NCBI GenBank assembly: GCA_973895155.1
Contig: OZ316893.1
Span: forward strand, 10,669,660 to 10,733,659
Source: Marsupella aquatica
Taxonomy: Eukaryota; Plantae; Marchantiophyta
Reading direction: 5' to 3'
Length of the DNA stretch: 64,000 bases
Within the stretch, counting starts at the first letter, position 1; each line of letters starts with the position of its first letter. Under the pieces are notes generated by a model. The model was not told the origin of the DNA. It did no database searches and saw only the letters and a program-made list of their open reading frames with translations. The translations under genes and the position numbers were made by a program. Shown here one piece after another: positions 37,474 to 63,777 of the stretch.

Positions 37474-38346
37474 TCACTTTGGTAAAGGGATCAGTAGCTT
37501 TCCATCAATCTTGACTAGCTCAAAAGTTTTATCAGACACTGCTTGCCTGATAAAATGGTACCTGATATCAATGTGCTTCACCCTGCTATCCATCACCTGG
37601 TTAGCAGCCAAGTGAAGAGCACTCCGACTATCACAATTTAGAGTCATTTTGCCATGCTCTAAACCCATCTTCGCGATCAACTTGTCCAACCAAATTGCTT
37701 CCTTTGTTGCTTCTGCTGCTGCAACATACTCTGCTTCTGTAGTAGACTGAGATATACACTTCTGCAAGGTAGATTTCCAACTGATACATCCTCCTCCAAG
37801 AGTAAATACAAACCCAGTTGTAAACCTTCTTGTATCCAGACAGCCTCCATAGTCAGAATCTACATAGCCAACTAACGTTCTATCTGATCTGTTATCAAAT
37901 AGTAATCCATAGTCCTATGTTCCCTTCAAATACCTGAGAATCCATTTCACAGCTTCCCAATGTACCTTCCCTGGATTTGACATGAATCTGCTAACCTTGC
38001 CCATCGCTAGGGCCAAGTCAGGCCTTGTACAATCCATCAATACATCAAACTGCCTACTATTCATTAAAACTGGAAAATTCTTTGATCTTTGGACATTTAG
38101 GCACCAAAAATATATATATTTGCTTCTCATAAGGAATCTTAGCCATCATACCTTTCTCCATAGCATCCGTAGGAGAGAAAGTCGATGATAACTTGAAGTG
38201 TGAAGCTAAAGGAATACTCACTGGCTTACAGTCCTCCATGTTGAATCGTGCAAGTACTTTCCTCGCATACTGGCCTTGACTCAAACACAACTGTCCAGTA
38301 TCAGAGTTCCTAAAAATCTCCATCCCTAAGATCCTCTTGGCCTTAT
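37474..38346 (-). pseudogene. Copia RT C-terminus and RNase H
   Basis: KAKRILGMEI, CTRPDLA..VSRFMSNPG..HWEAVKWILRYLKGT, STTEAEYVA, CDSRSALHLA, KHIDIRYHFIR. Confidence 0.95.
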
Positions 38347-38676
38347 TGTCACACCATTCTAGGTAGTGTTAGAGTGTATCGTACTATCTAGATCCGTATG
38401 TTTGGTATGTGTGCTATATGAGCCGATAAAGTTCCGTCAGGTTTGTGTCAGAGGGTACTTCTCACTTATGAGGCATTGAAAGGTCATCTTTCAATGTTGA
38501 TCCTTGGAGAGAGAGGAGCTTGAGTGGCTATGGTGGCCGTGAGCTCCGCTTGTGTAACATGGATTCCTTGAGTAGTGCAAGGTGCGTTGGCTTGACATAC
38601 GTGTGTGATCGGATCGGTGCGGGATCGATGGGGTATTGTTGACCGGGATCGTTGTGCCGATTGTATGGAGATTACA
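38347..38676 (+). repeat. Terminal repeat A1 (330 bp)
   Basis: Matches 58277-58605 with ~12 mismatches by eye; tgtcac...attaca. Confidence 0.95.
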
Positions 38677-38685
38677 TTGAAAGAT
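38674..38685 (+). promoter_or_regulatory. Candidate self-priming PBS
   Basis: acattgaaagat is the exact reverse complement of atctttcaatgt at 38486-38497 inside A1; no tRNA-type TGG PBS follows A1. Confidence 0.6.
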
Positions 38686-41376: not shown

Positions 41377-41778
41377 AGTGTCGAGCATGAAAACAGACCG
41401 GCATAATTGATATCCTATGGAGATGGCATATACCGCTTGTCATGGCCAGTTCCTCCACCAGGACGTCAGAAATTCCGACTTCTGAGACATGTAGACATTG
41501 TTGCTAGGTTCCCAAATTTTTGCACAGCAATCGACGAAAACCTTGCTGACCTCAACTCTGCCCAGGCTCTTTCTCCCGCAACAGCTCAGGCTTTTCATAT
41601 GTGTGCTGCATGGGCATACACTGAAACTGTTCCCCGCAGACAGAGGTACATTGTCTACCGCAAACTAGCACATGTTGCTAGTTTTGCAGATAGAACACCC
41701 TTCCCGGCAGCAGTTACAAGTGCAGTGCAGTCCACTTGGGAGCTACCTGGTGAACAACATGTGGATTTCCGGTTTTAG
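41377..41778 (+). pseudogene. KolX-like / P2X7 C-terminal 'ballast'-like accessory ORF (last exon; in-frame stop just before 41407)
   Basis: C-terminal RRQRYIVYRKL...RTPFPAAVTSAVQSTWELPGEQHVDF fits the pattern R..AYR....R.P.PSCV..IR..FP...Y.GF; convergent with the transposase. Confidence 0.65.
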
Positions 41779-42686
41779 GTTTGGAGGTTGTTTTTACTTT
41801 TTTCTTTTCATCATTGTTCTTATCACTTGAGTTATTTTCCATGTCTGGGTTATTTGTTCTACTAGTTTTTGGGTCTTTGTATTGTAAGTGCCACCCTTTC
41901 TTTCCCAACTACAAGTGCAGGCCACCTAGTAGTTCCTAAGCAAACACCATGTTGGTGTATGCCTTTAGTTTTCTAAGGTTGTGTGGTTATCTTTTCATCA
42001 ATATGAATTTGCTTATTGTTCCATGCTTTCTTTGTTTTATCATACTATTTTATTATTTTTGTTTGGCATGTGCCTCCTTCTTCTCTCAAGTGCATTAAGA
42101 ACCCTAACTTGGGAGATGCAAGGCAAAAACCATCCCTCTTTCTGCATTTACTTGTTGAGGTTCACTTGTGTTTGTTTAAGTTTATTTATTTGTTTATTTC
42201 TAGTACTGTCATTGTATGGGTTCTTTGTGCTACTCTTTACATGTGTTTCTTTGGCTTGTGCCTCCTTCCCCCTTCTCTGGGTTGGAACTCCTACTGGATG
42301 GCAGCATGAGGGGTTCAATTCCCCTTTGGATTATTGTCAAATTTTGGAAAATTGTTTCAATTTTTATATCTACTAGGTTCTTCCGTAATGCCATGCCATG
42401 CATGCTACTCTTCATAGGCAGGGCAAATGAGGGATACTTGGGCCATGGCCATTTGCCAAAAGTGTGACAAATCTCAACATAACTCACAACTTTCATTCAT
42501 GGTACTAAACCCTAACTTTCACATCCTACTAATACACTAATACAAAAAAGAATAGATGGCAAGGTGATATATTGGACTAGAAAAATGACAAATGAATATA
42601 GTAAAATCCACAACTTATATATCTCCTACATGTCAAATAAACAACACGTGTGGATTTTTCCAAGCGAAAATAAATTTATCAAGTGC

Positions 42687-45600
42687 TCATGAATCATAAT
42701 CTACACCTCTTTCGAATATGATACGGGCCACGTCTTTCTTCCATCTGATGCTTCTAGGGACAAGGTCACGGACCCTAGATGGATGTTGACGAGTGCAAGT
42801 ATTACTAGGCTGTCGTGTTCTAACTCGTACCACCTCCCGACCGATGTTCTCATTCCAGCACATTGCAGCACAAGCCATGCGGGCTTCGTGGGTCATGGAA
42901 AAATGAATCCTCTTCATAGCATATTTGTTGACATTTCCATGAAATGTTTCACTAAGAAAGTTTGCCCGGGCTCTAGTGTACAAGCGAACATTGACTGCAG
43001 TGACATTCTTGTGCAATCATTGCTTTAGAGCTCTATGTGTAGTGCCCCCTGTAAAATCCACAAGTATCCACATTAATTTATTTTTTTGGAAATATTAAAA
43101 TATTACATAACAACCCAAGCACATTATTCATGTCATATGCAACTTACAACCAGGGAGAATTGCTAGTAGATTTTCACTTACCCGCGATATAATATGGACT
43201 ATAAATTGCACCTTCCTCACAACACTTGCGAGGAAGGAAACTTTTACAAGGTTCATGGTTACCAGCCCAGTGATCAGCTGCAGTGATGATCTCCCTAGCC
43301 AACATGGTAGCATCATCATTTCCCCTGCAAGTAGTCATTAAGATTCAACTCAAGAATTAGGTCAGTTAAGTTCAATCCAAAAGTAACATTGACTGAAGTC
43401 ATGTAAATGGAAATAAATACCATAGTTATCATCCTACCTTTCTTTTGCATTGCAACAACAATAGTAAAACCAACTCTTCAACTTATCACCAAGTTGCTTC
43501 TCTATCAATTTTGGATACTTCAACTGCCTCCTGGTACGCAATGTGATGTCCTCCTCTGGAAATCCTCTATGTCTTCCAATGCGATACACCAACTCTGTCT
43601 TATTACCTGTGTGTCTCAAATTTTGATTCTTACACCAATCTGACAACACCCGAACTATGAATCTGCCCAATTTCTCCAAGGATGTTGCACCATCAATCCC
43701 ATAAGCAGGTGCTATTTCTTTCACATTTGCCAACTCTTTGTTAAACTACTTCAATAGATTTTTACATTTGTGCCACAAATCCTTCTGGTTATCAATATTG
43801 AATTCATAAATTATATTATCAATAGTGTTGTTATCATCGTGAACAACCTCATTGATTGTAATCCCAACATTCTGAAGATGTTCCAAGGCACGACGAACAC
43901 CAAGTGCCTCAATAGCGCCTGAATTCCCTGCCTCAACCCGGTCAATTGTTACAAGCTCTACTATCTTACCAGTAGCCACGTCTATCACGGGAACAGTGCC
44001 ATGGTATCCAGATCGTGATGAGTCCCAACGACAATCCACATATAGAATTAATGGAGTGGAACCTACAATTATCATAAACCACAAAATAATGTTATGAAAT
44101 CACCATTTACATGCATGCTCTAACAACATGGTACCTAGTAAAATGATAAATTCATTACTCAATGTAATTAACTAACACATGCTTGTGCACTAAAAGGAAG
44201 ACTCATATACCGTCTCTTTCTGCTAGGCCTTGTTGCAACCTTTGTTTCTTATTATCCCAAACTTGCAATACTGCTCCAATCCATCCAATGTCTCTTTGGG
44301 CTTCATTTTGAAATCAAAACCAATGTGTATTTCTTGGAACATGGATTTGAATGTGAGAGAATAGTTCACTTATCATGTTGTGTGTTAGACCAGCAGAGAG
44401 AGCAGAGTGGTAAATTAATCCAGTGATTGCAGGAACACCTGTATTCATAAACTAAACAAGATTAGGTACACAATATTAAGCCATTTAGGTACAAAAAGAC
44501 AGAACTATAAAATTAATTTGAGTAGATTGCATACCTCTATAAAGTTCATTTTCTCTGGTCATGAAAGATTGTGCATGCCCTGTTGGGCACTTTAGCTTCA
44601 ATATCCACAACTGATGGTGTGTGACAATGTCCTCAACCGAGTACTTACCGTCACAATCTTCAATACGACAATTCACACAAAACTCCTGGAAAAATTTGTG
44701 GACCTTACTCTTTTGCCAAAAAGCATACTCCACCAAACTCTCAGGGTCTGACTCAGTTTCTTGAGAAGATGGCTCATACTCATAATCCAAACGGCAGTCA
44801 ACTTCTATTTGCTCAGAAGAAGTAGATGCCTAAAAAAACACACAATAATTAGTAAGTTAACTAAAAATGCAGTAATTGCAAGGAGGAATTATAACAGACT
44901 ATGAATTGATACAAATGACAAGTACAAGAATGTGCAAAAATGTAATACCTGAGTTGGAGCCTCTTCAAATCCAGAATCCATGAAAACCATATCATCTAAT
45001 CCAAATGTTGTTGGATCAGCCACATCCAGCAAACAAATGGGTCCATCCTCATTTGACATCTGTTTAGGGTTTAGGGTACAATATTTGTTTATTAGTTGAA
45101 GCTAAGCTTTACATTAAATTAATGTACACCTATGAAAAACTAGAGGTCCTCATTTGCATGACTTATCAATGTATGGAACAAAGGTAGCACAAAGCAAATT
45201 AATTGAAAAAGCTAAACTTCACAGTTACCTGGGAATCGGACATCATAGAACAATCTTCCAATTCTATGTTGGAGTCCGGAATGTGCTCTGCATCCTCCCT
45301 CCCAGACTGAATGCGGTCAAATACACAAGTGTTGGAGTATGAATGAACTTGCTCATCATGTGAAGGTGATGCCACAACAAAATTGGAATCGTCATCATTT
45401 GGAACGGAGGATGGTGCACCACAAAATGGCTGCAATAAATAAATACAAACATAGGTTAACAATACTAAAACACGATGTATCGGCAAAGATAAAACCTCTG
45501 AATTTTGGATAACCCAATTTTTTTAACACATACAAAAGGAGAGATGGTGAAAGAGTTATACTCCAATTAAATTAAAATCTGGAAAGAAAGGGATTAGGGA

Positions 45601-45967
45601 AGGCAAACAAGTTGAAAGTAGAATGAAAAATGTTATTAAAAGTACCTGAGCAATCAACCCAAAGGTTCCCAAGTCCTCTTCATCAGCAAGGTGTTCATTA
45701 TTTATCCATCCAAAGTCATCTGGACCCTCAAATGCCATTACATCCCCTTCTTCATCCTGTCCGTGATGAGCACTAATAATAGCCGATATTTGCTCGGACA
45801 TACCATCCATGAGCCAAGCCATAATCTTTCCATGAGACATGTTGAGGGCCCTTGTAAGGCATGGTATCTACGTATATGACTTCCAGGAAGCCTACATCGA
45901 AGACTGCCTCCAACTTGGTGATAATCAATCGCAGGCGGTGGACGGTCCATTTGTCCGTCTCTAGCAA
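42687..45967 (-). pseudogene. Intron-containing Kolobok-type DDE transposase (in-frame stop at 43746-43748)
   Basis: YVDCRWDSSRSGYHGT, S..IEALGVRRALEHL, VVHDD, KDLWHKCK, ETFHGNVNKYAMKRIHF..HEARM..A..WNEN; AT-rich introns between exons; 5' end uncertain. Confidence 0.8.
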
Positions 45968-47149
45968 CCTAACAATACAACAAACAAGAATTTGTAAATT
46001 ATATGTCCTTGTATTTGTCTAGTACCTCAAAGGTCATGTTTGCAAGAATGCACTTATGAATGAAGATGTAGAAGTTCACACCAGGTCCATGATTACAATG
46101 AAGAAAAATGTACTGCAGAAAAATACATTGAGAATAATAATTGCAGCAAGTAAGAGAAAAAGAGCCCCACGCCATTCCCAATTATGCTCTAAGTGGATGG
46201 TTTGGTTCATACCTTCCCTTAGAGCGAATCCAGATTTATGGTAGTTGACCGAAGTCAGTACCCTACTACTGTAGATGGCAAGTTATGCAAAACTTGGTCG
46301 TTTCCCTCGGCAAGCTGCATTTGACCCACGTGAGTCCCAGATGTTTTGCAGGTTGTGTCAGCTCCTAGGATGAGACGAGGCTGCCTAGTTCACTTTCAAC
46401 TCCCGTCATTTTGAAGTCGATCGGATTTGTTTGTAACCTCCATGAACCTGCATACTTTCCTAGCCTCAATGTGGGAAGACTCAGTATAATGTCTTTCACT
46501 CCTAGAGTAACCAAAACAATCTAATAAGATAAGCTACTCTTTTGGATCTGCATCACACAAAACCGGACATACTACAGTCCGACCTCAGTTGGATGTTGTG
46601 CATTTTGCATAATTTCCAGTCCGTCATCATTGAGAAGCTACATAAAAAAATTTCATAGACTACATGTGTTTGAATTGACATACTTGGAGCCTCTTCGTTC
46701 AGCCCATAATTTTGAATAACGTTCATCATCTCCCCTCGCGTTTCCCCAAGTTATAGACAACAAATTTGCCGACATGCATTGGGAGTTGCTGGACCTTGGG
46801 CTGACGTTGATGGTTACCCTATTGTTGTAGTGTGCAAGTGACTGAAGGCTGCTAGAGACGGGGTACGTCCATTGTTGCAAAAAATGCTTGTCTACATAAT
46901 TATCTTGCCAAAATTGCGTACCTTCTGCGTAGACGAACAATTGCCCCTCAATCACCCTCGACCTTCAGTGAACTCTTCTTTATCATCGATAATCTGTGAG
47001 GCACCAGCGGTCAAGCTATCTTCCGACCAGCCAATCACTCCTCATTTTTTATGAAAAGCTTTTCACATTGTTCTTATCAAATGGCGAACAACTGAGATTT
47101 GCTAGTTCCAAAAATTCAAACTCAGTGTCACTACTGATGCGACCGTCAT

Positions 47150-47400
47150 GTGATGAGAGCACCTTTGCGGTTTTCAGAGCTTCACTGACTGCCGCCCTTA
47201 CATGGGCCATTCGATCGTGTTTGCAGTCATCCAAGGCTTCAACACTATGTTCCAATTCAACTCTGAAGCAAGAGATGCTTTATCCACAATGGGTAGCACA
47301 GCCTGCAAAAGGCGTGCAACACAAGCTTTTTGCTGCCAAGTACCAGAAGCCGATGTTTGACGAAGAACCTCGGATTGTTGAAGTGGCCAAAGGAAGGAGA
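47150..47400 (-). pseudogene. Captured host gene fragment: ARM/HEAT repeat of TORTIFOLIA1/SINE1-2 type
   Basis: TWQQKACVARLLQAVLPIVDKASLASEL [frameshift] EHSVEALDDCKHDRMAHVRAAVSEALKTAK. Confidence 0.55.
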
Positions 47401-47525
47401 AGCGTTGCCAAACTTTTCCTTCTTCAAAGAGATTGTGCTTCATTGCGGGGATAGACACAGAAGGTTCGCAAAGTTTTGTTACCCTGTTTTCTTGATGGCT
47501 TGTGTCCACTATGGCAGAGGGTTCT

Positions 47526-47700
47526 GTGTCTGGTATCAATGAAAGATTGAATTATGATCTTGCCTTATTGTGATATCTTATGTTCAACAATCGTAAAGCA
47601 CTCATTGGTGCATGTCTGGTATCAATGAAAGATTGAATTATGATCTTGCCTTATTGTGATATCTTCTGTTCAACAAACGTAAAGCACTCATTGGTGCATG
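47526..47700. repeat. ~87-bp direct duplication
   Basis: tgtctggtatcaatgaaag...cattggtgcatg occurs twice. Confidence 0.9.
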
Positions 47701-50491
47701 CAAATGGGCAGACATGGAAATCAAGCACGATCTTGCCCGTAATGACTTGAGAGTGACAGCTCGGTTGTGCTGGTGCACCTTATAATAGAACAATCAATAA
47801 AATCTCTCGCTGATAGCAGGAGTAGTTACACTTTGCTTGTCGCGATTTGCCTGATTTGTCTCGAAAGGATACAGACGCGGCAGTGACAAGATGCACAAAA
47901 TTTATGAGTACATTTGATCTTTGGTGCACTTTTGTTACTATCAAGTGTGTTTGAACAACGTCACTAATTACTTGCGACTACTACAACTTGGATCGATGGA
48001 GGAGGAGATGTACTCCTTGTGGCCATCTTCGATAATGCAAATCCATGACCTAGGTTGTACATCAAGCGGATGTACTCCAAAGAAATTATAAAGGGATATC
48101 TTTAGGGCAGACATGTTTAGCAATGCAACAGCCTTGTGTATGTCAGTGAGAAGATTGTTGCGTCTTGGATCCAGAACTTAGTAGCAGTCATTGTGAATTA
48201 TTGAAGTTTCAAGGGGAAGATTTTGCACGCAAGGACTTGTTCATTTTTGGGAGTGTTGGTCGAATGCTTCATTTCCCACCAACCTTGCTGCGCATGCTTC
48301 TACAAAAACAGAGCACATATCCAATTTGGTCTCTCCCCTTTGAAACCTACTCCACTTCGTAAGACGAAGCATCCCACGGTGAGCGATTATGCACATTGGT
48401 TGTATAGTCAATAAAATCTTGGAAGATCACGTCAGTCTTGCACTTCGCAAATGCCTCCTTGTGAATGGAGTATTTCTCTAACTCTATCATACACAAGTCA
48501 CAGAAACATGACTATCTTGAAGACAAAATAGGAAAAATGGATTCGCACAAGTGACTTTTCTAGATACTGCATAGGTTCGCAACATGCTGTACTTTCCGGC
48601 CATTGTAGACCACCTCTTTCCGTGGGTAGAGGCACCTCACAGAACCCATGTGTATGTCATCGCAGCTAACAAATTTTGGAATCAATAGGGGGACCAGCGT
48701 GGGGCCTGCAAGATCACATTGTGAGATACTCCGTTGCTCGGAAACGTGAAGGTCAGTTAAGTTTGACGGCAATTTTCAAACTCTATCTGAACACACCAAG
48801 ACCATGTGCACTTTCAAGATTTCATTGATTAGTCAGGAACGCGATTGAGACGCAAATAAAATTGATATGCTTTTTCTCAATTTTTGGAATATGAATACAT
48901 TGCATGAGGTTCAATGGGGAAACACGGCTCCAGATGACTTGAGCAGTGACCTTCATCCTTAGCCCAATCCGTCGCATGCCTCTACCAAATTTCCCCAAGA
49001 GGATCTCCGGTATTGGGGTAATGGCTCTGGGTAATGGTCAACATTCGGGGCCATTGGACATGTCCATGATAGTGGGGCTATGAGGATGCTGCGATGTGAT
49101 GCAGTGAACCATACTTGCAAATCTGAGTTGCGATTACTATTGGTGTGATGTTGTGCAATTTGAAGAGATGTTTGTGACTTTCCGCCCCCACATTGAATGG
49201 ATTGGCAGCGGGATTCGGCAAGTCAAGAAGGATGCAGTTTTGTTAGTGATAAGCATTAGTGTCGCGAGCATGCTTGAAGTCCTGGAATGTTTTTAGCTTG
49301 GATGCTTTTCCAGCCCAGCAGAGCACGTCTGTGACGAACATCCATAGCTTTAGCAGCAGATTTTCCAGCCCAGCCTACTGATGAACCCCGATGGCTATGG
49401 CAGCACCTTCTCACGATGACCTTCTCGGGGCAATGCACGCCATTGATGAATGGTGCTGCTCCCAATCCAATCTTGAACCACGCCCGCCCCTGGCCGTAGA
49501 GCAAAGCTGGCCTTAGCAGACCGACACGAGAGCCGTAGGCTTTCAGTAGTTTACTCCCACTTTCCTTTGCCACGACGAAAACAACAAATTCTCGTCCTTT
49601 CTTCGTTCGGTGGGGGTCCCCCTTGTCGATGGCTATGGCAGCACCTTCTCACAGTGACCACCCCACTCACAAACCCACTCAGGATTGCACAGGCCCGTTT
49701 CACAGCACTGCCACATACTAACTACGGGTGCAGTGTTTTGCGGAGCCTTTGACTGGGGCTAGCCGGCTCTGGCTGAGAATCGGAAGCCTGGCCTTTGTTG
49801 GGCACCTCTGGAGAGAATGAGCTGACCGGAACTTGTCCCCTTCTGATATTTATATGGACAGTGGCGGTTTAAGTGCTCTTGTGTACACACACTCCTTTCC
49901 ACTTTGATGTTAATGGAATGAGCACTTAGGCATTTTATACACATACTAGTTTGTTTAGATTGCCATTTTGGAGCAAATCATAAGCTCCCTTAAGGTTTTT
50001 GATGCTTCTGAATCCATCTAGATGCATGGATTGAACCAATTGTGCATGGATCTTTAGCTTCGACATTGAACATTGAGAGACCTATTATGAAGGCCCCACA
50101 TTGAACATTATGAACATTGTTTGATTGATGTATGATCACTATTGATGTGGAGAGTTATTGTGGATCTCTTCTTGTTGATTGGATCCTCTCCACATATGCT
50201 TCCTGTTTATGCGCCATGTCAGTTTGGCGTGGGCGCTTGATTCTATAAGAGTGATCCGGGTTTGCAACCAGACATTCTAGTTGTGCTACGTATTTCTCTC
50301 CTGGTGATGTTGGAGTGATGCCCAACACACCATGGTGAGTGCTTGTGTTGCTGACAGGGACAGATTGCCCTTAGGGTTAGCATATAGATTAGGTTAGGTT
50401 GGTCATCACGAATTCTTCTGGTGCTGCTGGGTTACCCGATGGATGACGGACCGGTTTCACTCGGAGTGGGGCGTAGTTTTGGCCAGCGACA

Positions 50492-52460
50492 TTGGTAGTA
50501 GTCAGCAGCACAGCTTCAGACACTGATTCTGACGAGGACTCTGTGAGCAGTTCTCCTCGTCATCAAGTGATTGCACCTTTGTTGTGGGATATGGAAGAGA
50601 TGTACGGGGCTACAAAGGGCCCACGACGATACTCTGGTGCAGTTGGCACAATTGATCTGGATGATTTCATCCAGGAGTTTGATACGTGGTGCGATATGCA
50701 GACATTGCGTAACGCCACGTTGTTTTCCCCTTTGATGGCATGGAAGGGATTATTTCAGCATTTGGAGGGGCCACCCATGGATGACTACCATGAGTTTTGG
50801 AAGGCTCATTTGGTTGAGATTGAGGCATGGAGGCAGCATTGGTCATCTAATTACGTGTCCATCACCTATGGCACTAGTGCGGCTGCCCAACCCATTGCCA
50901 CAACTGCTGCTTTTTCTAGCAGCACTAGCCAGAGTGACACACCATCCACCACCAGCACTCCAACAGCATCCACCGCTACTCCTGCCGGTGTGATTATGAC
51001 AGGGACTGGAGTTGCGTCAGCATTTAATCTTGTGGTGGAATTCTTTGAGGTACTAAAGCAGAACTATCAGGGTGTGAGAACTGATAAGTTGAAGGATCTC
51101 CAAGAGTTTCAACGCAAGACTGGAGAGAGTCTACGTGAGGCATACACTCGTATGTGCAGATTGGCCTCATTCACAATTGGGTGTACCTCATAGGAACCAC
51201 TTTCAGGACTCAAAAACATGTTTTTTTTAGTGAAAAATGACTTTCGTAACATGGAAAAAGCTTCATCATGATTTTATCTCAAGACATTTAAGTCTAATTT
51301 TTTCACAAGACTATTTTACATGGTGTAATCTACCTCACCATGTAGATAAATCAAGTTTTTAACTTTTTTAAGGGATCCTATTATTGATGGCCCTAAATAA
51401 GCCAAAATTTCTGATTATTTTTGTCCTATACATAAAGGTTTAGTGTGTGTCAATATTTAAGTTTTAAAATATAAGATTATTATATTAGTATGCATGCCTT
51501 GGTAAAATTTCATTGTCTAAAATGCAAGTTTTAGAGTCCTTTCGAGTCCTGAAATGATGTGACTCGTTGCATGACAAGTCATTTTATCGATCTTTGATGG
51601 ACATATAAGGAAAGCTTCAAAGTCTCAAATGCTAGATAGTTTAATTAATGTTACCAACCTACAGGATGTTTATTAAGTATAGTACATCAAATTTTGCATA
51701 TCATCTCATTACACCTTACAAATGATGTCCTAAAGCATAATAAACTATGGTCACTTCTGAGTGTGATGTTCCTTTTGGGTCCTCCAATTGTGAATGAGGC
51801 TGATTGATCACTGTCACCAAGGGAGTGATAGAGGCTCAGGCAGTCCAGGTTTGGTACGCAATCCTGGATAGAGAATTGCAACGCAGAGTGAGAGATGTCA
51901 CCCTGCTTAGGGATGTAGATCCCACATTAGCAGTTGTTTTTACACTTTCTGAGCGCATTGAGCTCAATATGGTGAATGAGAAGGTGGTGACTTTCGGATT
52001 TGCCAAGGAAGCACCAAAGGCTGCATCTACACCCACACCACAGCCTACTGCACAGAAGAGCCAGAGGGAGAAGCCTACTGCACGAGAGTCTACCAGCCAG
52101 AGACCTGTGCCCTCTTATGCTGGACATCATTCAGGATGTTGGACCTGTGGTGGGGATCATGCACAGAGATATTGCCCAGATCATAGAGGATCAGGGGGAG
52201 CATTAGCGCCTGATTAGCGATAGTGTGATCATTGTGGAGCTCCTGGCCACACCAAAGATAGGTGTTTCTCACTCCACCCTGAGTTACGGAGGGAAGGATC
52301 CCGTACTCATGATCAAGGAAGAGGAGGAGGAGGTAGAGGTGGTGGACGTGGTCGTGGCATGCCACATGCAGGGATACAGGGAGGTGACGCTGCCCCTACT
52401 GTAACCATAGATCCAAAGGATGCTAAGATTGCTCAATTGGAGCAACAACTCTCGCAATAG
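50492..52460 (+). pseudogene. Gypsy gag, split by a MITE, with two Cys/His knuckles
   Basis: LQEFQRKTGESLREAYTRM; CWTCGGDHAQRYC (~52138) and CDHCGAPGHTKDRC (52224-52265); RGG-rich tail. Confidence 0.8.
51163..51801. mobile_element. 639-bp AT-rich MITE inside gag
   Basis: TIR gcctcattcacaattgg / ccaattgtgaatgaggc; GATT duplicated (51159-51162, 51802-51805); removal restores ...TRMCRLITVTKG in frame. Confidence 0.9.
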
Positions 52461-53189: not shown

Positions 53190-53520
53190 AGGGTGTTACT
53201 GGATACTAGTGCTTAGCCCTTGATGTTGGGAAAGTCTGCCATACGTGGATTGGGATTGCATCTAGAGGATTTGGAGGATTGTCCCTTTCCCATTCAGACT
53301 TCATTGGGGGGACCTACACCTACACAACACATTACCAGGAGACCTCTTGATTTGAGGATTCAGGAAGGTCATACCACAGATAGCTCACAGATACAGGCAC
53401 GAGCTATTTTGACTAAGGCAGAGTCATATGATGTGTTGGTGGGATGTACAGTGCTCTACCCCATGGGATTTATTCTTGATTTTTGGGAAGAATCAGTGTT
53501 ATATAGACCTGATTGGCAGT
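53190..53520 (+). pseudogene. Retropepsin-like aspartic protease
   Basis: RVLLDTSA*PLMLG ... YDVLVG. Confidence 0.8.
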
Positions 53521-53899
53521 CAGGAGATGCTAGATTGAGAAAATTGCCAGTGAGATTTAGTGGACCCATGGGAGGCCCTAAATCCACACCATTGTCTTTG
53601 GCAGCATTCAGTGGTCTAATTGCTGGACCTGATGATTTGATTGAGGGTAATGCGCATGCAGCAAATGTTCCACCATTGGAGGAGTCTCATGAGGAGCACA
53701 TCATGCGAGGATTATCTGTTGGCAGTGTTGTGCCCCCAGTGTGGGGCAATGCACAAGCCTACAGGCAGCAGCACAATTGGTACATGATGCATGGCGTCAT
53801 GCTTTTACACCACAGTCAGGAGCAGAACAGTCTCTTGCAAATGGACCTGTGACTCTTTCACCATTGGATACCACTCCTATTGCTTGGTAGTATCCACTA

Positions 53900-54845
53900 G
53901 AGGATATTTGTTTGTTGGATCTTTTTGGTGGGATTAGCACTGGATTGGCTATTGTTCTTCAGGCAGGAATTCTTGTGCGTCGTTATTTATATGTGGAGAC
54001 AGATGAGACAACACGGAGGGTCTCATTGCGACATGTGGCTATGTTGGTGGATAGATATCCATAGTTGCTGCCAGTGGATGTTGTTCGTGGTTATCAACTA
54101 TGCACTACCTGCTGATATTTCATTGTTGGGGGCGGATCATCTGCATCGTGTTGGCCCCATTGATTTGGTGATTACTGGTTGGCCATGTCAGGGCTAATCT
54201 AGAGCTGGCATTGGGCATGGACTTCATGATCCACGCTCTGCATTGTTTTGGGAGATGTTACGGGTGTTGCGTCATCTCCAGCTACATGAGACACAGTCTC
54301 CAGCATACATTTTGGAGAATGTGCCATTGTTAGGTGATGATTGTAGTTGGATTGTTGCCAATGTTCACCAGGTGAGGTCTTGGATTGGACCTGCTGTGTT
54401 ATTGGATATTGCACATGTGGATTCTCGTGCACATTGTCCACGCTTGTGGTGGACTAATTTGATCCCATGTGAGGTGCTGAAGCGCGCATTTGACAACATT
54501 CCACGCTCACCCGCCTTAGTGGTGGATGCTATTTTGGATCCAAGGCGTCGTGCACAGGGTGTGACCCAATCTGATAGACCTCCATTGGCAATGGTCAATG
54601 CAGTTGGGCGCCCATGTTGTGCATTACCCACTCTTGTAAGCCACTCTACTTCATATGCATTCAGAGCAGGTGGCCCTGGACTTGTGTGGGACACAGCTCT
54701 CCAGCAGTTAGTGGAACCTACTGCTGATGAGAGAGAGCGTGCTATGGGATTTTTGACTGGCACCACTGCAGTTGCCTCTGTGTTAGAGGGTTTGCGGCGC
54801 CAGGTTCTTGGTTAAGCAATGGATCTGAATTGTTTGACTTGGATT
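53900..54845 (+). pseudogene. C5 cytosine DNA methyltransferase domain within the gypsy pol
   Basis: Motif I LLDLFGGISTG (53912-53944), II YVETD, IV DLVITGWPCQG (Cys 54186-54188), V DPRSALF, VI ILENV (54315-54323), VIII AHCPRLWWTN, IX ERERAMGF, X RRQVLG*AM; stops and one frameshift. Confidence 0.92.
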
Positions 54846-55197
54846 ATCAGCTTGGGAGTAGCTGAATAGTTGCGGATGCGCTCTGCTGAAATTACTGATT
54901 GTCCCTTGGTGAGCTTGCGGTCCACTGAGACAATACTGACCACAGTTGGGGGCGAGCAGATAATCCATGGACCTATGGCAGGATTGGCCAAGGCTGGACA
55001 CATTGTTGATCAGGAAGGGACTACTCAATCTACTGCTAAATAGCAATCATCGGCTATCTCTTCTACCCTATAAAGAGATATTAGAGATTTGGTGGAGAGT
55101 TGGGAACCACAGCTTGGCCCTAAGTTGACAGGGGAGGAGAGACGTCGCATGCATCGATTCTTGAAGAGTTACTGGAATTGTTTAATTTGCATTTAGC

Positions 55198-56330
55198 ATG
55201 AAGGATTTGGGGACATTAAAGGGTCCTGGTATTCAGATTGAATTGGCTAGTGATGCGCCAATCTTTCGTAGGCCATACCGTTACAGTGACATGGAAAGAG
55301 CTCTGATTCAAAGCAGAACTCAAGATTTGTTGGAGGCTGGATTGGTGGAGATTTCATATGGGGAGTATGCATTTGCCACAGTGATGCTAGCCAAGAAGGA
55401 TGTGCATGGCAATTACACAGATAGGCGCATGTGTGGTGATTACAGACTCATTAATCGCCAGACAAAATCTGATAGATATGCCATGCCCACACTTGAGGAG
55501 ATCTTTGATGTTGTGGGGCATGCAAAGGTTTTCAGTTCATTGGATCTGAGGGCAGGGTACCATCAGCTTCCAATTAGGCATGCTGACAGGTCCAAGACAA
55601 CATTCTGGGGGATTGATTCTTATGGCAAAGATCATTTGTATCAGTGGTTATTCTTACCATGTGGGTTGAAGAATGCACCAGCTGAGTTCTTGAGAGTCAT
55701 GGATCGAATCCTTGGAGGTTTGGATTTTGTTAGATGTTATATTGATGATATTTTGGTCTATTCTTCTACTGTGGAAGAACATCAGCAGCACTTGCAGATT
55801 GTGTTGGAGAGATTGAGAGCACATGGGTTGAAGCTCCATCCTAGCAAGTGTAACTTCTTCCAAGACCAAATTGAGTATTTGGGCCACACTATATACCCAG
55901 GGGGATTGGGTGTACAACAGACTAAAGTGGAGGCCATTACACAGATTCCTTGTCCTACTGATGTGAGTAGAGTTCGTGCATTCTTGGGATTGGCGAGCTA
56001 CTACAGGAGGTATGTTAAAGGATTTAGCCAACTTGCTAAACCTTTGACCATACTCACTAAGTTGGATCTGGAATGGATTTGGGGTGATGACCAGGAGCAT
56101 GCCTTTTAGGAGTTGAAGCAAAGGTTGGCATCATCCCCTATTTTGAGAAGACCCATTTTAGGCAGGCCATTTCAGCTACACACTGATTGGAGTGGAGTAG
56201 GACTTGGAGCAGTGCTGACTCAGAAGGATGATGAGGGGAATGAGTTTGTTGTGGCTTATACCAGTAGATCAAACAATTCAGTAGAGGCTAAGTAAACTTG
56301 GATGCAGATGGATTAAGCCACAATCCATGT
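55198..56330 (+). pseudogene. Gypsy reverse transcriptase and RNase H (RNase H internally deleted near 56290)
   Basis: RMCGDYR, LDLRAGYHQL, PCGLKNAP, YIDD, FLGLASYYRR, LHTDWSGVGLGAVL; sequence jumps from NNSVEAK to DADGLS. Confidence 0.95.
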
Positions 56331-56651
56331 ATCAGTCAGCAGGATGAGACTGGAGCCAGATGGCATGATGAGTCAGATAAGGAGATGGTGCCAGGATGAC
56401 ATGCATCTGCCTTTCTTTGTTGGGTGCCAGCATATAGTGGATCTGTGGACTCTATCTCATTGGATGGAGTGGATGATGAGTCTTTAGATGTGGATGTTGG
56501 TGAGGTAACTTCTGAACAGCAAGATATTCACAATGATGTGAGAGTGTTGGAATATCTGCGCAGTGGTTCTATTGTTGGCAGTGTTGATGCCAAAGAACGT
56601 AACAGGGTTCTACAGAGAGCCAAGAGATTTTGATGGGAGGGAAACCATCTT

Positions 56652-57780
56652 TTGAGAGTACTGCATGATGGTAGGGTGTTGGTGGTACCAAAACCATCAC
56701 AACGAATACATTTGGTGCGACATGCACACGAGGAGTTGGGTCACTTTGGTGTGAAGCGCACTTACAGCTTGCTGCAGACACAGTATTGGTGGTGTGGTAT
56801 GCACACTCATGTCCAGCAGTTGATAGCTAAGTGTGTGGTATGTGATAGAGTGAGAGCATCATTTAATGCTCCCAATCCCCAGTTGCACCCGTTGCCGATC
56901 ATGGATTTGAGATATCGTTGGAGTTTGGATTTTGCTGGTCCATTACCTCTTACCCAACGTCATAATCGGTATGTTTTGGTCATGGTGGAGCACTTCTCCA
57001 AGTGGATTGAGCTAGTGGTGTTGCCAGATAAAGCTAGTGGAGGAGCTGCTACATTTTTGGATCGTGTACTCAGTCATTTTGGAGCACCAGCTGAGGTGTT
57101 GACTGATCAGGGAACTGAGTTCCGTGGAGAGTTTGAGAGTTTGTGTGAACAAGCTCTGATTGATCATCGTACTACCTCTCGTGATCATCCTGAGGCAGAT
57201 GGATTAGCTGAGAGAGTTATGTAAATTGTGAAGAGAGGATTGCGTAAGTATGGCTTGCAGGTTGGTCATCTGGGAGATTGGGATCTCCAGCTACCTTGGT
57301 TAGCTATGGGCTACCGTTTCAGTCGGCAAGCATCACTTGCATCCTTCTCACCTTACTTTTTGCTCTATGGTAGAGACCCAGATTTTCCAACAGCTGTTCG
57401 TCGTGATGCTGCACCAGTTGTGAACTTGGATGATCCTGATGTTTGGGTCAAGGTGTGTTCTGAGAGAGCACGGGTATTTCAGAGAGTGATGCCCATGGCT
57501 TTTGACAACCTTGCCATTGCCCAACATCGTGATACTTTGAGGTATGCCACTATTCGTGGAGGAGGTTACCGTGCAAGCATTTGACGATTTCATCCTTGTG
57601 ATTATGTTTATTTGCAGTAGACAGCACCCACAACACTTGATGTGACCGCAGGCCAGACAATCTTACGTGTGCGTGAAGTGTTGCCTTCTGGTGTCCTGAT
57701 GTTGGAGAGACGCGATGGTATGGTTTGGAAGGATCATGTGCGTAACTGTGCACCATGTCACCTTCCCAACATTGATGGTA
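56652..57780 (+). pseudogene. DDE integrase (HHCC zinc finger plus rve core)
   Basis: HEELGH...CVVC; WSLDF, LTDQG, GLAERV; SPYFLLYGR. Confidence 0.95.
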
Positions 57781-57821
57781 CAGTAGATCCAAGCTTGGCA
57801 CATGTTCGTGCTAGCTTGAAA

Positions 57822-57962
57822 TGTATGTTATGTGGATCTGCTCAGGGAGCAGCTAATATGTTGATTTGTGATAAGTGTTCTAGAGGATGGCACATGTCAT
57901 GTTTGACACCACCATTGCAGGTGATTCCTAGTGGATCATGGTTGTGTCCTCAGTGTTGGTGA
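57822..57962 (+). pseudogene. PHD finger at the integrase C-terminus
   Basis: CMLC...MLICDKCSRGWHMSCLTPPLQVIPSGSWLCPQC, a C4HC3 pattern. Confidence 0.93.
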
Positions 57963-58126
57963 AGCCGACTAGTTATCATTTGTGTTCTCTTGGCAGATAT
58001 GGATTGCAGGTAGGTGATCGATGAGGCTCACTTGCACCCGGCCTCCTGATCTTCACACCTAAAAAGGTGTATATCAACCTTGTAGAACTCATGGCTAGCT
58101 AGAGTTAGGGGACCTTACTCCCAGCT

Positions 58127-58136
58127 AGGGGGGCGA
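58127..58136 (+). promoter_or_regulatory. Polypurine tract of the gypsy element
   Basis: aggggggcga one base before the TG of repeat B1. Confidence 0.75.
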
Positions 58137-58137
58137 T

Positions 58138-58742
58138 TGTGGGTTTTTGGACATGTGTGGACATGAGTTCCACTTGTATTCCATTCTCTTGTGTTTGTGA
58201 TGTGGCAGTGTGACTATGTTTGGACGCATGTGACAAGCGATGTATGTTGTGTAGCGATGTGTATGCGCACGACAGCTGTCACACCATTCTAGGTAGTGTT
58301 AGAGTGTATCGTACTATCTAGATCCGTATGTTTGGTATGTGTGCTATATGAGCCGATAAGGTTCCGTCAAGTTTATGTGAGAGGGTACTTCTCACTTGTG
58401 AGGCATTGAAAGGTCATCTTTCAATGTTGAGCCTTGGAGAGAGAGGAGCTTGAGTGGCTAGGGTGGCCGTGAGCTCCGCTTGTGTAACGTGGATTCCTTG
58501 AGTAGTGCAAGGTGCGTTGGCTTGACATACGTGTGTGATCGGATCGGTGCGAGATCGATGGGGTATTATTGACCGCGATCGTTGTGCCGATTGTATGGAG
58601 ATTATTGTGGGTTTTTGGACATGTGTGAACATGAGTTCCACTTGTATTCCATTCTCTTGTGTTTGTGATGTGGCAGTGTGACTATGTTTGGATGTATGTG
58701 ACAAGCAATGTATGTTGTGTAGCGATGTGTATGCGCACGACA
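58138..58742 (+). repeat. Right terminal block: B1 (58138-58274), gc, A2 (58277-58605), B2 (58606-58742)
   Basis: B1 and B2 are 137 bp with 4 mismatches; A2 matches A1; the B1/A2 junction is the palindrome gacagctgtc. Confidence 0.95.
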
Positions 58743-61700
58743 TTACCAAGATCCTTCATCCTGAATTCAACACTCAATTTTGCCTTGAGACTGTGAACCT
58801 CAGATTAATCTTTAGCCACTATTAGCATGTCATCCACACAGATAACCAGAATGATGAAACCAAACACATCATTCTTGACTGATTTTGTATACACACAATG
58901 ATCATACACCATCCTTGGAAAACCTTGAGCAAGCATGAAATCATCAAACCGCTTGTTTCATTGTCTAGGAGATTGCTTCAATCCATACAAGGACTTGAGC
59001 AATCTGCAAACTAAGTTCTCTTGGCCCTTCTTCATAAAGCCTAGTGGCTGTCTCATGAAGATCATCTCTTCCAAGTTGCCATAGAGAAAAAACAGTAACA
59101 ACCTCCATCTGATCCATCACCAAACCAAAAAACACAACAAGCTGACATAAGATCCAAATTGTGGAATACTTAGCCACCGGTGAAAAGACCTCATTGTAGT
59201 CCACTCCTTTCTTCTGAGTGAACCCCTTGACAACAAGCCTTGCCTTGCCTTGTAGATCTTATCTCCACCCTCTGAAGGACTGTCTTTCAACTTGTAAATC
59301 CACTTGCTGTCCACCACTTGTTGACGTCTTGGAAGCTCCACCAGCTCCCAAGTCTTGTTGTCACTCAAAGATTGTAACTTCCTCTGCATTGCTGCATTCC
59401 ACTCATGCTTCTGCTCTAAAGCACAAGCCTCACTGTACAAAAAAGGCTCTCCTTCTTCCAAGATCAAAGCCATATCATCTTCATCAGGTGCAATGTCAAT
59501 ATCATCTAGCTTAGATGAGTCTGCCCATTGACCATACCTGGTAGGAGCTCTAGTAGAATGACTGGAAGTTCTTCTAGAAGATGACTCAGGTTGATCTGCT
59601 GCTGCTGCTGCTGCTGGTTGAATTTGAGGTACCCCAGCAATAATCTGCTCCTCTTGTTCCATCATAGGAACCAACTCCAAGCCCGGAGCTTCTCCATCTC
59701 TCTTGTCATGAACAACATCATGACTAATCTCTCTCTCAACCCGGTCCAGGATGGGAGATTTCCCCTTGTCAGTATGGGAGTCTTGAGAACTCTCCCCCTC
59801 CTTTGATGATCAGGATTCATTAAAGGACATATCTCTACTGACAACTAGTTTACAGGTTACTAGATCCCATAACCTATAACCCTTCACACCTTTCTGATAG
59901 CCCAGGAAAATGCACTTCTTCGACTTGGACTTCAGCTTGGATTGAAGCTGGGAACTAAGGTGTAAGCACATAAGCATCACATCCAAAAATCCTTAGATGT
60001 GAGTAATCTGCTGGACGCCCGTACCTCATTTGAAATGGCGTCTTGAATCCAATAGAACTAGATGGAGAAAAATTTACCAAATAAGCTACAGTGTTGACAG
60101 CTTCAGCCTAAAACTCATGTGGTAAGCATGATTGACTCAACATACTCCTCGAGCGGTCCAATAGTGTTCGGTTGAGTCTCTCAGAAACACCATTCTGCTG
60201 AGGAGTATAACTTGTTGTGAGATGGCGGGTAATCCCCTGCTCCTTACAATACGTTCCAAATTCCATGGAATTGTATTCACCGCCGTTATCCGATCGAAGA
60301 TATCTCACCTTATTACCAGTCTGATTCTCTACTTGGGCTTTCCACTCCTTAAAAGTGGCAAAAACATCAGACTTATTGTGTAGAAAGTATATCCACACAT
60401 ACCTTGAGTAATCGTCTATGAACGTGACATAGTATAATCGTCCAGAATGTGAGGGAGTAGGGGCTAGACCCCACACATCACTATGTACATACTCAAGTAC
60501 CTCCTTGCTGGTGTGAGCTCCAACTCCGAAGGGTTTCCTGTGCTGCTTCCCAAGCACACAGTGCTCACAAAATTCCAACTTACAAGATTGCAAATTAGAA
60601 AGCAATCCTTTCTTCTGAAGAATAACCAAACCTTTTTTACTCATGTGGCCCAAACGGAAGTGCCACAGCCGGGTCGTCTTCTCATGAGATAAGGTTATAT
60701 TGGCTTCATCACAAACAACACTGCCCTCCAAAACGTATAGATTGCTATGTCTTTTTCCCTTCAATACAACTTTAGTACCAGTTGAAACCTGAAGGACACC
60801 ATTAGCAGAACTCCACTGATGGCCATTTGCTTCTAAAACTCCAAGTGAAATGAGATTTTTCATCATGCTGGAATGTGTCTCACATTCCTCAACGTTCTTA
60901 CAACACCATCAAACATCTGAAATCTTACAGATCCAAGTCCAACAACTTGACATGGGATTCCATTTCTCATCAACACTGACCCGTTGGAAACTGTGTAAGA
61001 ACTGAAAAAATCTCTCATAGAGCAAATGTGAAAAGTACATGCACTATCTAGAATCCAGTCATCACTACCTGGATTTGACACTACGTTGAGAGCATAACCT
61101 TGACATCACAATATGTCATCATCATTGAGTAAATCTACGTCATGCAAGCTCGATGCCGCGTTAGCAGATGCAGTAGGGACCTTTACTCGACAATCCCTTT
61201 TCATGTGGCCAGGCTTGCCACAATTCCAACATGCAAGAGGCTTCCTCTCTTGCAATTTCCATCTGGATTTAGATCTTCCACGTGATGTAGATCTAAACCT
61301 GTTCTGCCCATTCGTGCGCTGCGCTGCTCTGCCACGGTTCATGTTCAGCGTAGTGCCAGAAGAAGATGCTGTCTGTGATTGACCTAGCTTCTTCTGAGCA
61401 TCATCAGACAGTAAAGAGCTCACCACCTCATTATACGAAATGGATTTCAGATCTCTGTACAAGAGCACCTATTTCAAGCCCTGATATGACGGCGGTAAGG
61501 AGCTTAGCAAAAGCAAGGCCTTATCCTCATCTTCAACTCCTTTTCCTAGGTTTGACAGATCCACCGCTAGACTGTCAAACTCATCCAGGTGATCTGGCAT
61601 CTTGCTCCCTTCCTTGAGCCTGAGACTCATCAAGAGAGACTTCTTGTACAGCCGGTCTGACGCATCCTCCCGGTAGTACTTCTCTCTAAGAGCCTTGAAC

Positions 61701-62170
61701 AATGACGCACAATTCGCATAATCATCCAGCTACTTGATGATGTGCGGCTTGAGATATAGCATCACTGCATTGACAACAATCACCTGCTCCTGTCTCCACT
61801 GTCTCATAGAAATCTCCTCTTCTCCATCATACTGCTCTCGTGAAGAGAGTAGATGAGCTAAGCCCATGGCCCGAAGGACACCCTTCACTTGCTTCTCTCA
61901 CAGCAAGTAGTCAATACGCCCATCGTACTTCTCCACGTCAAACTTCACTCCTCCAAATCTAGCCATCTCCCTCTTCTTCCCAACTACCGATAGCTCTGGT
62001 AGTAGTACAGCTTCCTCCACTGCACGCCGCACCAGTGATCGTATCGGTGTTACAAGTTCCTCCTCAAACGGTAGCAGCTCCTCCTCAGACTCTCCGTCTG
62101 ATTGTCGCAATCCTGAAGCTCCACCGACGCCAATTCTTCCAGTATCCTCCGAGTCACTCATATGAAACAA
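58743..62170 (-). pseudogene. Copia gag-protease-integrase and RT N-terminus
   Basis: [99 protein letters not shown]. Confidence 0.95.
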
Positions 62171-63777
62171 TCACGAAAAAATGTCTTTTTTCAAAACTTC
62201 TCATAAAACTCAAAACTCAACACCACCGCGTAGCCCACGAAGCTAGGAGTCCAATACTGAAAGCCAAAATCAAAATCAAAATTCGACACAAAAGTTATTC
62301 AAATTTCGGTCGGGGTGGGTAAAACCTTGGGAAACTCCCCTGTTTTGACCACCTCGGAGAATAACCAAAATACCCAGTACAACCCGTCGTTGAAATTGCG
62401 ATGTGTTTGGTGCACCGCATTGCTAACTCCAATGGCAACGTCCTCGCCAAAAAAGAACCAAAAAAGTTACCATTCGGCGGACAGAATCTTTGTCGGACGG
62501 CCAAAAAACAGCTCTCTGTTTTTTTGGAAATATTCCCGCACAATCCGACAGGTCTCACAGGGGGCTGTTCCCCCTGTTGGAGTGGTTAAAACAGAGGGTG
62601 GCAGGTCCCGCTACAAGGAGAACAAAGCGGGAGGAAAAAAATGGCTATAAATGGGCACTAAAGGGGGTGCCAAAGCCCCTTAGCAAAAATACGCTCCAAA
62701 ACGCGCATCCGCGTATGCGCGACGTGAGGCGGGCCAGGCAGGGTATAAGGAGGGCGTATGGCCGGGGTGAGTATTTCCGTGTACGCGACTGGTAGTATAA
62801 GGGGCACGTTTAGGCGCAGGGCGCGGGGTCGCAGGTGAACACAGCCGCGGCAACTTGGGGTCGCGGTTGCAGGGCTGGCTGGATGTAAAGGGTGGGGCAC
62901 GGGCCGGCAGGCACGGGTGCGCATAAAGCGCCGGCCGGCGCTGCGTGATAGGGTCGGCCGAGGTCAAAAAAGCAATATACGGGGAGGGGGTATGTGGGGG
63001 TATGCGGGGCCGACCGGGCGTAAACGTGTGTGTACACACGTTTTTGTGTGTATACACACACCAAAAGTGCCCTAAACCCCCTCCTTTAAACCAAAAAAGA
63101 CCCTTAAAAGAAAAAATTGAATTTCTCACCTTGAGAGCCGCTGTTTAAAACGAGAAAAGCAAACGCCACCGACGGGAAAAGTTGTCGAATTGTACCGACA
63201 CAGTCTGTAGCTCCAGCAGAGTAAAAAAAATTCCGATGCGTCGCCTTCACTCCGCGTCAAGTGCCAATCCCGGGCTCAAAACAACCGCCTTGCCGCGATC
63301 AAACCGTTGAGCCGCAGCACTTTGCATTTCTTCCACTGAGTCGGACGTCACAAAGAGAAACCCAGTTCAGATGTAAACAAGCTCCATAGCTTGTGAAAAA
63401 ACCTGAACGCCTCTTTCACTCGTCACGACGCACTCGGTAACAACTCGGCAGCAATCCAGCTATCGAAATGACCAGCTCGCTTCAACCTTCAACTTGAGCG
63501 ATCCCCCGAACACCGCACAGCTCACTCCGTTGAAAAAACAATCTCTGGTCTCTCCCCCGAAAAGCGTCAAACACGAATAAAACCTGAATGACGCAAACTT
63601 CAATTCCTCCGCACCACAGATACCGATCAGCGAGTTCTAACCACCGTTAGAACGCCCTCTCACTAACCTATCTGCTCAACCACATACATTCGAGTTTCAT
63701 GCGATGAAACTCTGAATGTACCATCGACAATGAATGCTGGAAAACTGTCACGAAAAAACCTCATCACCTCCCAGGCA

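Follow-up and report, generated by a model that had tools for sequence, protein, structure and literature searches.

A Decayed Ty3/Gypsy Retrotransposon in Marsupella aquatica Carries a DNMT3-Like Methyltransferase Domain Ahead of a Conserved Stop Codon and Between Split Terminal Repeats

The Element and Its Surroundings

A decayed Ty3/Gypsy element occupies positions 38347–58742 on the plus strand of a 64-kb stretch of Marsupella aquatica DNA (hereafter the window, i.e., the whole of this stretch). The element is nested in a minus-strand Copia reverse transcriptase gene and is flanked by a 4-bp target duplication with one mismatch; the Copia frame resumes across the insertion (...FRMKDLG in the right flank, KAKRILGMEIF in the left flank). 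The Copia element hosting the insertion covers 37900–38346 and 58743–62300 on the minus strand. The Gypsy element possesses the order Gag-protease (PR)-reverse transcriptase (RT)-RNase H (RH)-integrase (IN) with a DDE integrase, as well as a polypurine tract (PPT), a primer site, TG...CA ends, and a short target duplication, all of which are typical of Ty3/Gypsy (Table 1). Two complete, identical LTRs at the element ends are absent; instead, the repeats A and B are arranged as A-coding-B-A-B or A-coding-B.

Table 1. Features of the Gypsy element and its immediate flanks, in window coordinates.
Feature	Position	Strand	Remarks
Left 4-bp target-site duplication	38343–38346		one mismatch to right copy; within Copia RT
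Terminal repeat A1, 5′ end, begins TGTCAC	38347–38674	+	317/328 identical to A2
Predicted transcript start inside A1	near 38486	+	
Predicted self-priming primer-binding site	38674–38685	+	12 nt complementary to 38486–38497 in A1
5′ leader and ~11 kb of sequence without assignment	38686–50476		extent inferred from matching ends
Gag, two degenerate zinc knuckles	50591–52460	+	tblastn vs Marchantia P0004
Insert splitting Gag, 637 bp, AT-rich	51164–51800		perfect 17-bp terminal inverted repeats
Aspartic protease, LLDT motif at 53196	53190–53530	+	translation
DNMT3-like C5 cytosine methyltransferase domain	53900–54845	+	unpermuted I–X, broken here
Motif starts: I (FGGIS), II (E), IV (PCQ), VI (ENV)	53924, 53996, 54183, 54315	+	
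Motif starts: VIII, IX (ERAMGF), X (LG*AMD)	54426, 54735, 54807	+	
Conserved in-frame stop UAG-CAA-UCA ending ORF1	55041–55049	+	predicted type I read-through signal (CAR-YYA)
RT and start of RNase H	55186–56295	+	RT 55186–56109, PF00078 E 6e-33
Integrase: H2C2 finger, rve core, C-terminal region	56634–57800	+	PF17921, PF00665
PHD finger, integrase C-terminus	57819–57959	+	PF00628 E 7e-12
PPT	58123–58136	+	directly 5′ of B1, likewise at 21 loci
Repeat B1, ends CACGACA	58139–58274	+	97% to B2
Internal B/A junction palindrome GACA-GC-TGTC	58270–58281		two abutted element ends
Repeat A2	58277–58604	+	differs from A1 at 11/328 bases
Repeat B2, 3′ end	58606–58742	+	
Right 4-bp target-site duplication	58743–58746		

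The ~11 kb between A1 and Gag presumably represent later nested insertions, and no Pfam match was obtained for seven ORFs drawn from this region. Within it, several short minus-strand ORFs at 43700–46970 resemble pieces of a DNA-transposon-like gene, again with no Pfam match. The insert that splits Gag is MITE-like, and ~68 RNase H codons are gone near 56290, as judged from a tblastn gap against P0008. The protease of relatives matches PF13650/PF13975 weakly. Elsewhere, the window holds an intronless ubiquitin-conjugating enzyme frame at 10229–10810 (PF00179, E 1e-50), possibly a retrocopy; a Bet v 1/MLP-like gene at 16000–30540 that is present as three diverged copies in tandem, spaced by ~8.6 and ~4.3 kb; and tandem repeats with units of ~100 bp (12560–13020) and 86 bp (47527–47700).

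A DNMT3-Type Domain at the End of the First Reading Frame

An earlier note on this DNA had reported an ordered set of C5 methyltransferase motifs on the plus strand in a copy that is now dead. All of the motifs were found in the place and order claimed, no intron marks the domain as a later insertion, and the copy is indeed broken, with a frameshift near 54099 and five stops from decay (53888, 54062, 54195, 54813, and 54867) within the domain or next to it. Motif VIII reads RAHCPR in the window, and the commonest form in the family is RAHRPR. The proposed check against PF00145 failed for the longest open piece of the window copy, which stayed below the cut-off (E 0.004), and succeeded for an intact natural sister, P0001 (E 5.8e-12), which is 77–84% identical to the window domain. 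The Marchantia gene Mp4g09160 likewise encodes a natural intact DNMT domain. The domain does lie after the protease and before the RT, but its earlier assignment to pol was mistaken: it forms the C-terminus of Gag-PR and closes ORF1 ahead of a conserved stop.

The classification of the domain as DNMT3-type, and neither MET1/CMT nor DRM, was borne out by the sister P0002, which is closest to DNMT3A by sequence and by fold. Searched against solved structures, the P0002 sequence matched human DNMT3A with E 6e-12, DRM-type enzymes with 1e-8 or weaker, and bacterial enzymes with 3.5e-4 (M.HaeIII) or weaker. Its predicted model (pLDDT 88.3) had DNMT3A/3B as the top Foldseek match (E 2e-19). Compared with DNMT3A, the domain contains a conserved insertion following motif II, and its target-recognition region has diverged; motifs IV, VI, VIII, and IX are intact in 149–164 of 174 domains. 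Sequence and model agree that this is a DNMT3-type C5 methyltransferase, for which catalysis is predicted.

A lack of purifying selection, which the earlier note had named as evidence against its reading, was not observed: dN/dS for the DNMT was 0.09–0.20 in 8 of 11 pairs, although dS was near saturation in most pairs, the exception being L057-L058 (dS 0.27, ratio 0.11). The remaining pairs gave 0.42 and 0.49 (both decayed copies), with one not computable. In the main subfamily, 62 decayed copies gave a dN/dS of 0.60 for the DNMT versus 0.39 for the RT. Between subfamilies, these ratios indicate that the DNMT is under purifying selection. CpG depletion, a measure that cannot tell self-methylation from host methylation, is similar in the element (0.31) and the neighbouring Copia (0.39), and thus gives no sign of self-methylation.

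An Old Family in Bryophytes and Green Algae

The domain has 65 longer homologues, many of them from Marchantia polymorpha, Calypogeia fissa, and Sphagnum, and its homologues fall into 702 clusters when grouped at 50% identity. The domain was confirmed in 297 of 434 candidate stretches of metagenomic DNA, and 80 were fetched as loci. Contigs from four sequencing runs cover the domain without the breaks of the window copy at five checked positions, and all 30 bins were covered in runs X1–X3, in which contig depth is not usable as copy number. Among 81 domain-bearing sequences, the protease lies upstream in 55 and the RT downstream in 64, most misses being contig ends. The domain is therefore kept in bryophyte and algal sister copies, contrary to the possibility raised earlier that such copies lack it.

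That the window copy alone once captured a host DNMT3 gene is a reading to which we assign practically no probability; it was ruled out by this breadth of homologues, by selection, and by matching tree splits, as the DNMT and RT trees separate into the same two major groups. The protein homologue searches turned up no host DNMT3 gene, and all close relatives with a name proved to be element proteins; the DNMT tree consequently has no proper outgroup. In the careful RT tree, 32 DNMT/PHD rows fall on one side and 14 other Gypsy rows on the other (100/100), and the window copy groups with Marchantia, Calypogeia, and Sphagnum-like loci (100/98); the RT trees (115 rows, or 46 in the careful one) took in only part of the outgroup rows. 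The closest named RT of the window copy is from Calypogeia (79%). The family RT stands apart from the sampled chromovirus-type and animal Gypsy rows, a sample that is without labelled Tcn1, Chlamyvir, Phygy, or Selgy.

Named algal members come from Closterium, Coleochaete, Klebsormidium, Scenedesmus, and Haematococcus. In the chlorophyte-type group, comprising P0056, P0119 (Scenedesmus), P0160 (Haematococcus), and ~40 more rows, the order is RT-RH-DNMT-IN-PHD, and the group is a single clade in both the DNMT and RT trees. In Closterium and other algal-type rows, the DNMT shares one ORF with the RT. Judged from these sequences, the DNMT domain has switched position within one RT lineage. The DNMT of P0184, a zinc knuckle-protease-DNMT protein of Klebsormidium nitens that is 38% identical to P0001, falls inside the same 51-row clade (SH-aLRT 96) in a tree with two outgroup rows and without host DNMT3 or K. 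nitens RT. A Coleochaete scutata transcript with an RT-IN-PHD frame (P0236) groups with the land-plant subclade, which therefore either predates land plants or moved between hosts. Taken together, the sequence comparisons identify the element as a member of an old green-lineage Gypsy family found in mosses, liverworts, and green algae.

Three family members (P0023, P0369, and P0438) are labelled cyanobacterial in public MAGs; probably, contigs from plants or algae were binned with bacterial ones. Another protein, P0363, combines a C5 DNMT related to this clade with a Dam-type domain.

A Conserved Stop Between the DNMT and the RT

Unlike the decay stops, the TAG at 55041 is conserved in the family; P0001 and P0409 terminate at the matching residue. 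Of 64 DNMT-RT junctions, 54 have a stop in the RT frame with CAR-YY directly after it, equivalent to about five independent cases because most loci (~62 of 80) belong to one subfamily with many near-duplicates. At two further junctions, including that of the window, the motif is shifted by later indels, and eight are without it. The same context follows only 2 of 554 decay stops. The linker varies in length and sequence by subfamily, and the stop, its context, and the frame stay constant. Among the 65 homologues, 37 end 60–170 residues past motif X, 7 run into the RT or integrase, 3 end sooner after motif X, and 18 are without motif X.

UAG-CAR-YYA is described as the type I read-through signal of tobamoviruses (PMC3542737). 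The exact motif is found in the window, where it is preceded by AA, and in three other subfamilies; the largest subfamily has CAA-CCC, off consensus at the last base. Unlike the viral signal, the stop of the element sits between Gag-PR-DNMT and a retrotransposon RT, and its read-through is predicted. RT-RH-IN-PHD is likely made in this way, as a minor extension of a Gag-PR-DNMT protein that would be the main product. Given read-through, the DNMT would be made at capsid level. It is improbable that pol arises instead by splicing, re-initiation, or a separate transcript, with the stop context conserved for another reason. Such a route could draw on the ATG directly after the motif in the main CAA-CCC subfamily and on the Marchantia gene models that join the DNMT to the RT (P0006, P0008, and P0017). 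However, the subfamilies of the window, L014, L060, and L071 have no ATG and yet keep the frame and CAR-YY, and four subfamilies fit CAR-YYA exactly.

Since algal relatives hold the DNMT and RT in one ORF, or the DNMT between RNase H and integrase, high DNMT dosage is evidently not needed everywhere. Two proteins, P0184 (flagged partial) and P0186, end ~20 residues past motif X with the same last residues and without an RT; on account of these ends, Klebsormidium elements may likewise have a stop following the DNMT.

Split Repeats, Probable Self-Priming, and a Probable Circle Junction

At its 3′ end, the window copy reads PPT-B-GC-A-B, with a second A at 38347, and this A-coding-B-A-B arrangement recurs at L002, L022, L054, and L075. 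The earlier note had overlooked these repeats, as well as the predicted self-priming site and the 5′ end at 38347. Downstream of a PPT, 21 B repeats were found, of which 4 are followed by A, 16 by flanking DNA (A-coding-B), and 1 by a contig end. No canonical B-A...B-A copy occurs among the 17 loci with a complete 5′ end, all of which start at A; the loci are short-read assemblies, and their end structures come from subfamilies other than that of the window. In the nine loci with both ends, the 4-bp duplication is exact in five, has one mismatch in two, and could not be judged in two. Reading 58139–58604 as a canonical LTR was rejected, as it is A rather than B that forms the 5′ end, and the target duplication lies directly outside A1 and B2.

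The B/A junction has the form CGACA-NN-TGTCA in seven sequences from three subfamilies (the window and six loci), NN being GC three times, AT twice, AC, and GT; such variety would fit deamination of methylated CAGCTG. The A/B junction differs from copy to copy, as end-joining would give. A junction-like match in L071–L073 (position 3242) was dropped because no PPT adjoins it.

Directly 3′ of A, the window, L066, and L058 show complementarity to a site inside A over stretches of 12 to 16 nt (12, 12, and 16 nt; 12 nt in the window), in sequences that are unrelated to each other; in a shuffle control, 0 of 2000 shuffles gave 11 nt or more. In the decayed main subfamily, a match of at least 10 nt at the expected place is present in only 7 of 17 loci. 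L066 and L058 also have a TATA-like box ~30 nt upstream. These matches make self-priming of the Tf1 type likely. A short inverted repeat has the predicted transcript start (window 38470–38497; L058, L066) as its right arm and a copy of the primer-site sequence as its left arm.

From the positions of the primer site and PPT, the reverse-transcribed LTR should be B+A. As the integrated ends correspond to the internal B/A junction of this LTR, they point to an integrase that cuts a circle junction, and integration by cutting circular cDNA at the B/A palindrome is likely on the sequence evidence. The A-coding-B form may instead stem from later recombination between B repeats or from assembly collapse. 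An origin of the split repeats in DIRS-like replication or in post-insertion LTR rearrangement, without cutting of a circle junction, appears unlikely. A-coding-B-A-B is indeed the pattern of DIRS elements as described (PMC5890265), and the short-read origin of the loci leaves room for rearrangement. Against a DIRS-like route, there is no tyrosine recombinase in the element; what it has instead is an rve (DDE) integrase, together with a PPT and TG...CA ends flanked by 4-bp duplications. Against rearrangement, none of the 17 loci that start at A is canonical.

A Proposed Replication Cycle and the Role of the Methyltransferase

An account that joins Gag-PR-DNMT3 at capsid level, self-cDNA methylation, read-through pol, and integration from a junction-cut circle seems to us somewhat better than an even bet. 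It builds on the observed domain order, stop context, selection, split repeats, 4-bp duplications at TGTC...GACA ends, and primer complementarity. The RNA would start inside A1 and end inside A2, and its 5′ end would pair with the site after A1 and prime reverse transcription in the manner of Tf1. With the PPT and primer site, a linear B-A-coding-B-A cDNA would be produced, the ends of which would be joined into a two-repeat circle. The integrase would then cut after CA on both strands at one B/A junction, generating ordinary recessed CA ends. A two-repeat circle cut once would yield an integrated A-coding-B-A-B with a variable A/B joint, and a one-repeat circle, or cuts at both junctions, would yield A-coding-B, which could not replicate because its 3′ redundancy is missing. 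Meanwhile, the protease would release many DNMT3 molecules within the particle, where they would methylate the new cDNA, such that new copies would arrive marked like host heterochromatin.

The PHD finger would steer integration via histone H3 tails. Its closest solved relatives are fingers of CHD4, DPF3, ATXR5, KDM5, and PHF21A, a group of readers of H3 unmethylated at K4. By analogy, the finger probably reads H3 tails unmethylated at K4. A chromodomain is absent from the element.

For the methylase itself, packaging with Gag and methylation of new cDNA are about evenly balanced against the rival roles taken together. Action in trans on host chromatin or the insertion site, for example by silencing genes in the flanks, competing elements, or genomic copies of the element itself, is the less likely course: a Gag fusion would package the enzyme, although capsid-level expression would leave free enzyme in the cell too, the PHD finger on the integrase points to chromatin, and the DNMT adjoins the integrase in chlorophyte-type relatives. 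Less probable still is a domain kept for a non-catalytic or RNA role, such as nucleic-acid binding, chaperone activity, or RNA m5C. The K. nitens domain showed no activity in yeast (PMC5890265), and the insertion and divergent target-recognition region noted above could reflect such a role, but the catalytic motifs are intact in most of the domains and the best fold matches are DNA enzymes. Beyond packaging and cDNA methylation, a more far-reaching and less likely form of the account can be offered tentatively: across an as yet unrecognised lineage spanning the Viridiplantae, a retroviral-type integrase would routinely integrate circular cDNA via a palindrome in the LTR, and DNMT3 at capsid stoichiometry would methylate the cDNA, possibly including the CAGCTG junction, thereby choosing the junction to be cut and shielding the intact genomic one.

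Relation to Known Elements

The closest published precedent is KnitGypsy-Dnmt3 of Klebsormidium nitens, described with DIRS-like repeats, a DNMT in the RT ORF, and purifying selection (de Mendoza et al. 2018, PMC5890265). By that description, the present family shares its Gypsy domains, its intronless, unpermuted Dnmt3-like domain with catalytic motifs, its purifying selection, and its A-coding-B-A-B repeats. It differs in its land-plant hosts and in a DNMT that is in frame but behind a conserved stop; a PHD finger, self-priming, a junction palindrome, and an integration route do not figure in the description (PMC5890265). When tried in yeast, the K. nitens domain produced no methylation, an outcome that the authors regard as inconclusive (PMC5890265). 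SymbioDIRS-Dnmt3 of Symbiodinium, a retroelement whose Dnmt3-type domain methylates CG in yeast, is likewise described with split direct repeats (PMC5890265), but uses a tyrosine recombinase rather than a DDE integrase; the S. kawagutii protein P0365 shares just 30% identity and is not a member of the DNMT clade. "Gypsy-DNMT3" is named for 'streptophytes' in a preprint (10.64898/2026.05.21.726589), and such elements are mentioned in 'streptophytes' in a further paper (PMC12344493); both are later works by the authors' group and give no detail in the text consulted.

Other traits have separate parallels. Tf1/Sushi elements and the plant Tcn1 chromoviruses are described as self-priming (PMC6317226), and they also share a chromatin reader on the integrase tail; here, in contrast, the PHD finger replaces the chromodomain and the repeats are split. 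TE-PHD fusions are reported as widespread (10.1101/2021.11.30.470311), and PHD-bearing Gypsy elements, among them Gypsy-7a_cRei, are known in Chlamydomonas (PMC9940879). Compared by description, Gypsy-7a_cRei shares a PHD finger in a green-lineage Gypsy polyprotein and differs in having near-ordinary LTRs and no methyltransferase among its described domains (PMC9940879). Foamy-virus integrase is reported to cleave the palindromic junction of a 2-LTR circle (PMC1180852). The present family resembles it in pairing a DDE enzyme with a palindromic end-to-end junction, where cutting is suggested by sequence; unlike in foamy virus, the junction is templated inside the LTR and retained in the genome of each complete copy. 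Circles as integration intermediates have another parallel, as IS3-family elements integrate from circles.

No description of a land-plant family, a read-through stop, or junction-based integration was found in the sources covered, among them PMC10952607, PMC9033089, and 10.1101/363937; most subscription papers, Repbase, and theses lay outside this scope, and the main supplement of PMC5890265 may show architectures or land-plant sequences. A methylase-bearing Gypsy is thus already known, published for one alga (K. nitens); what the present family adds is its spread across bryophytes and chlorophytes, a position of the enzyme that would give capsid-level production, and the probable integration through a circle junction.

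Significance

Land plants silence retrotransposons by cytosine methylation. In bryophytes, a widespread retrotransposon family carries its own writer of this silencing mark, the activity of which is predicted, paired with a histone reader. The REXdb survey, by its description, required a duplication as well as a pair of full LTRs bounded by TG...CA (PMC6317226); split repeats would hide such elements from surveys of this type, which may explain why they were overlooked. In addition, the genes of these elements can lead to an overcount of DNMT3 in annotations of bryophyte and algal genomes. If circle-junction integration is the normal route, it would constitute a new replication strategy for LTR elements. 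Furthermore, Marchantia polymorpha annotations hold intact-looking Gag-PR-DNMT frames as genes, so that the role of element-borne DNMTs, open since 2018, becomes testable in a tractable model.
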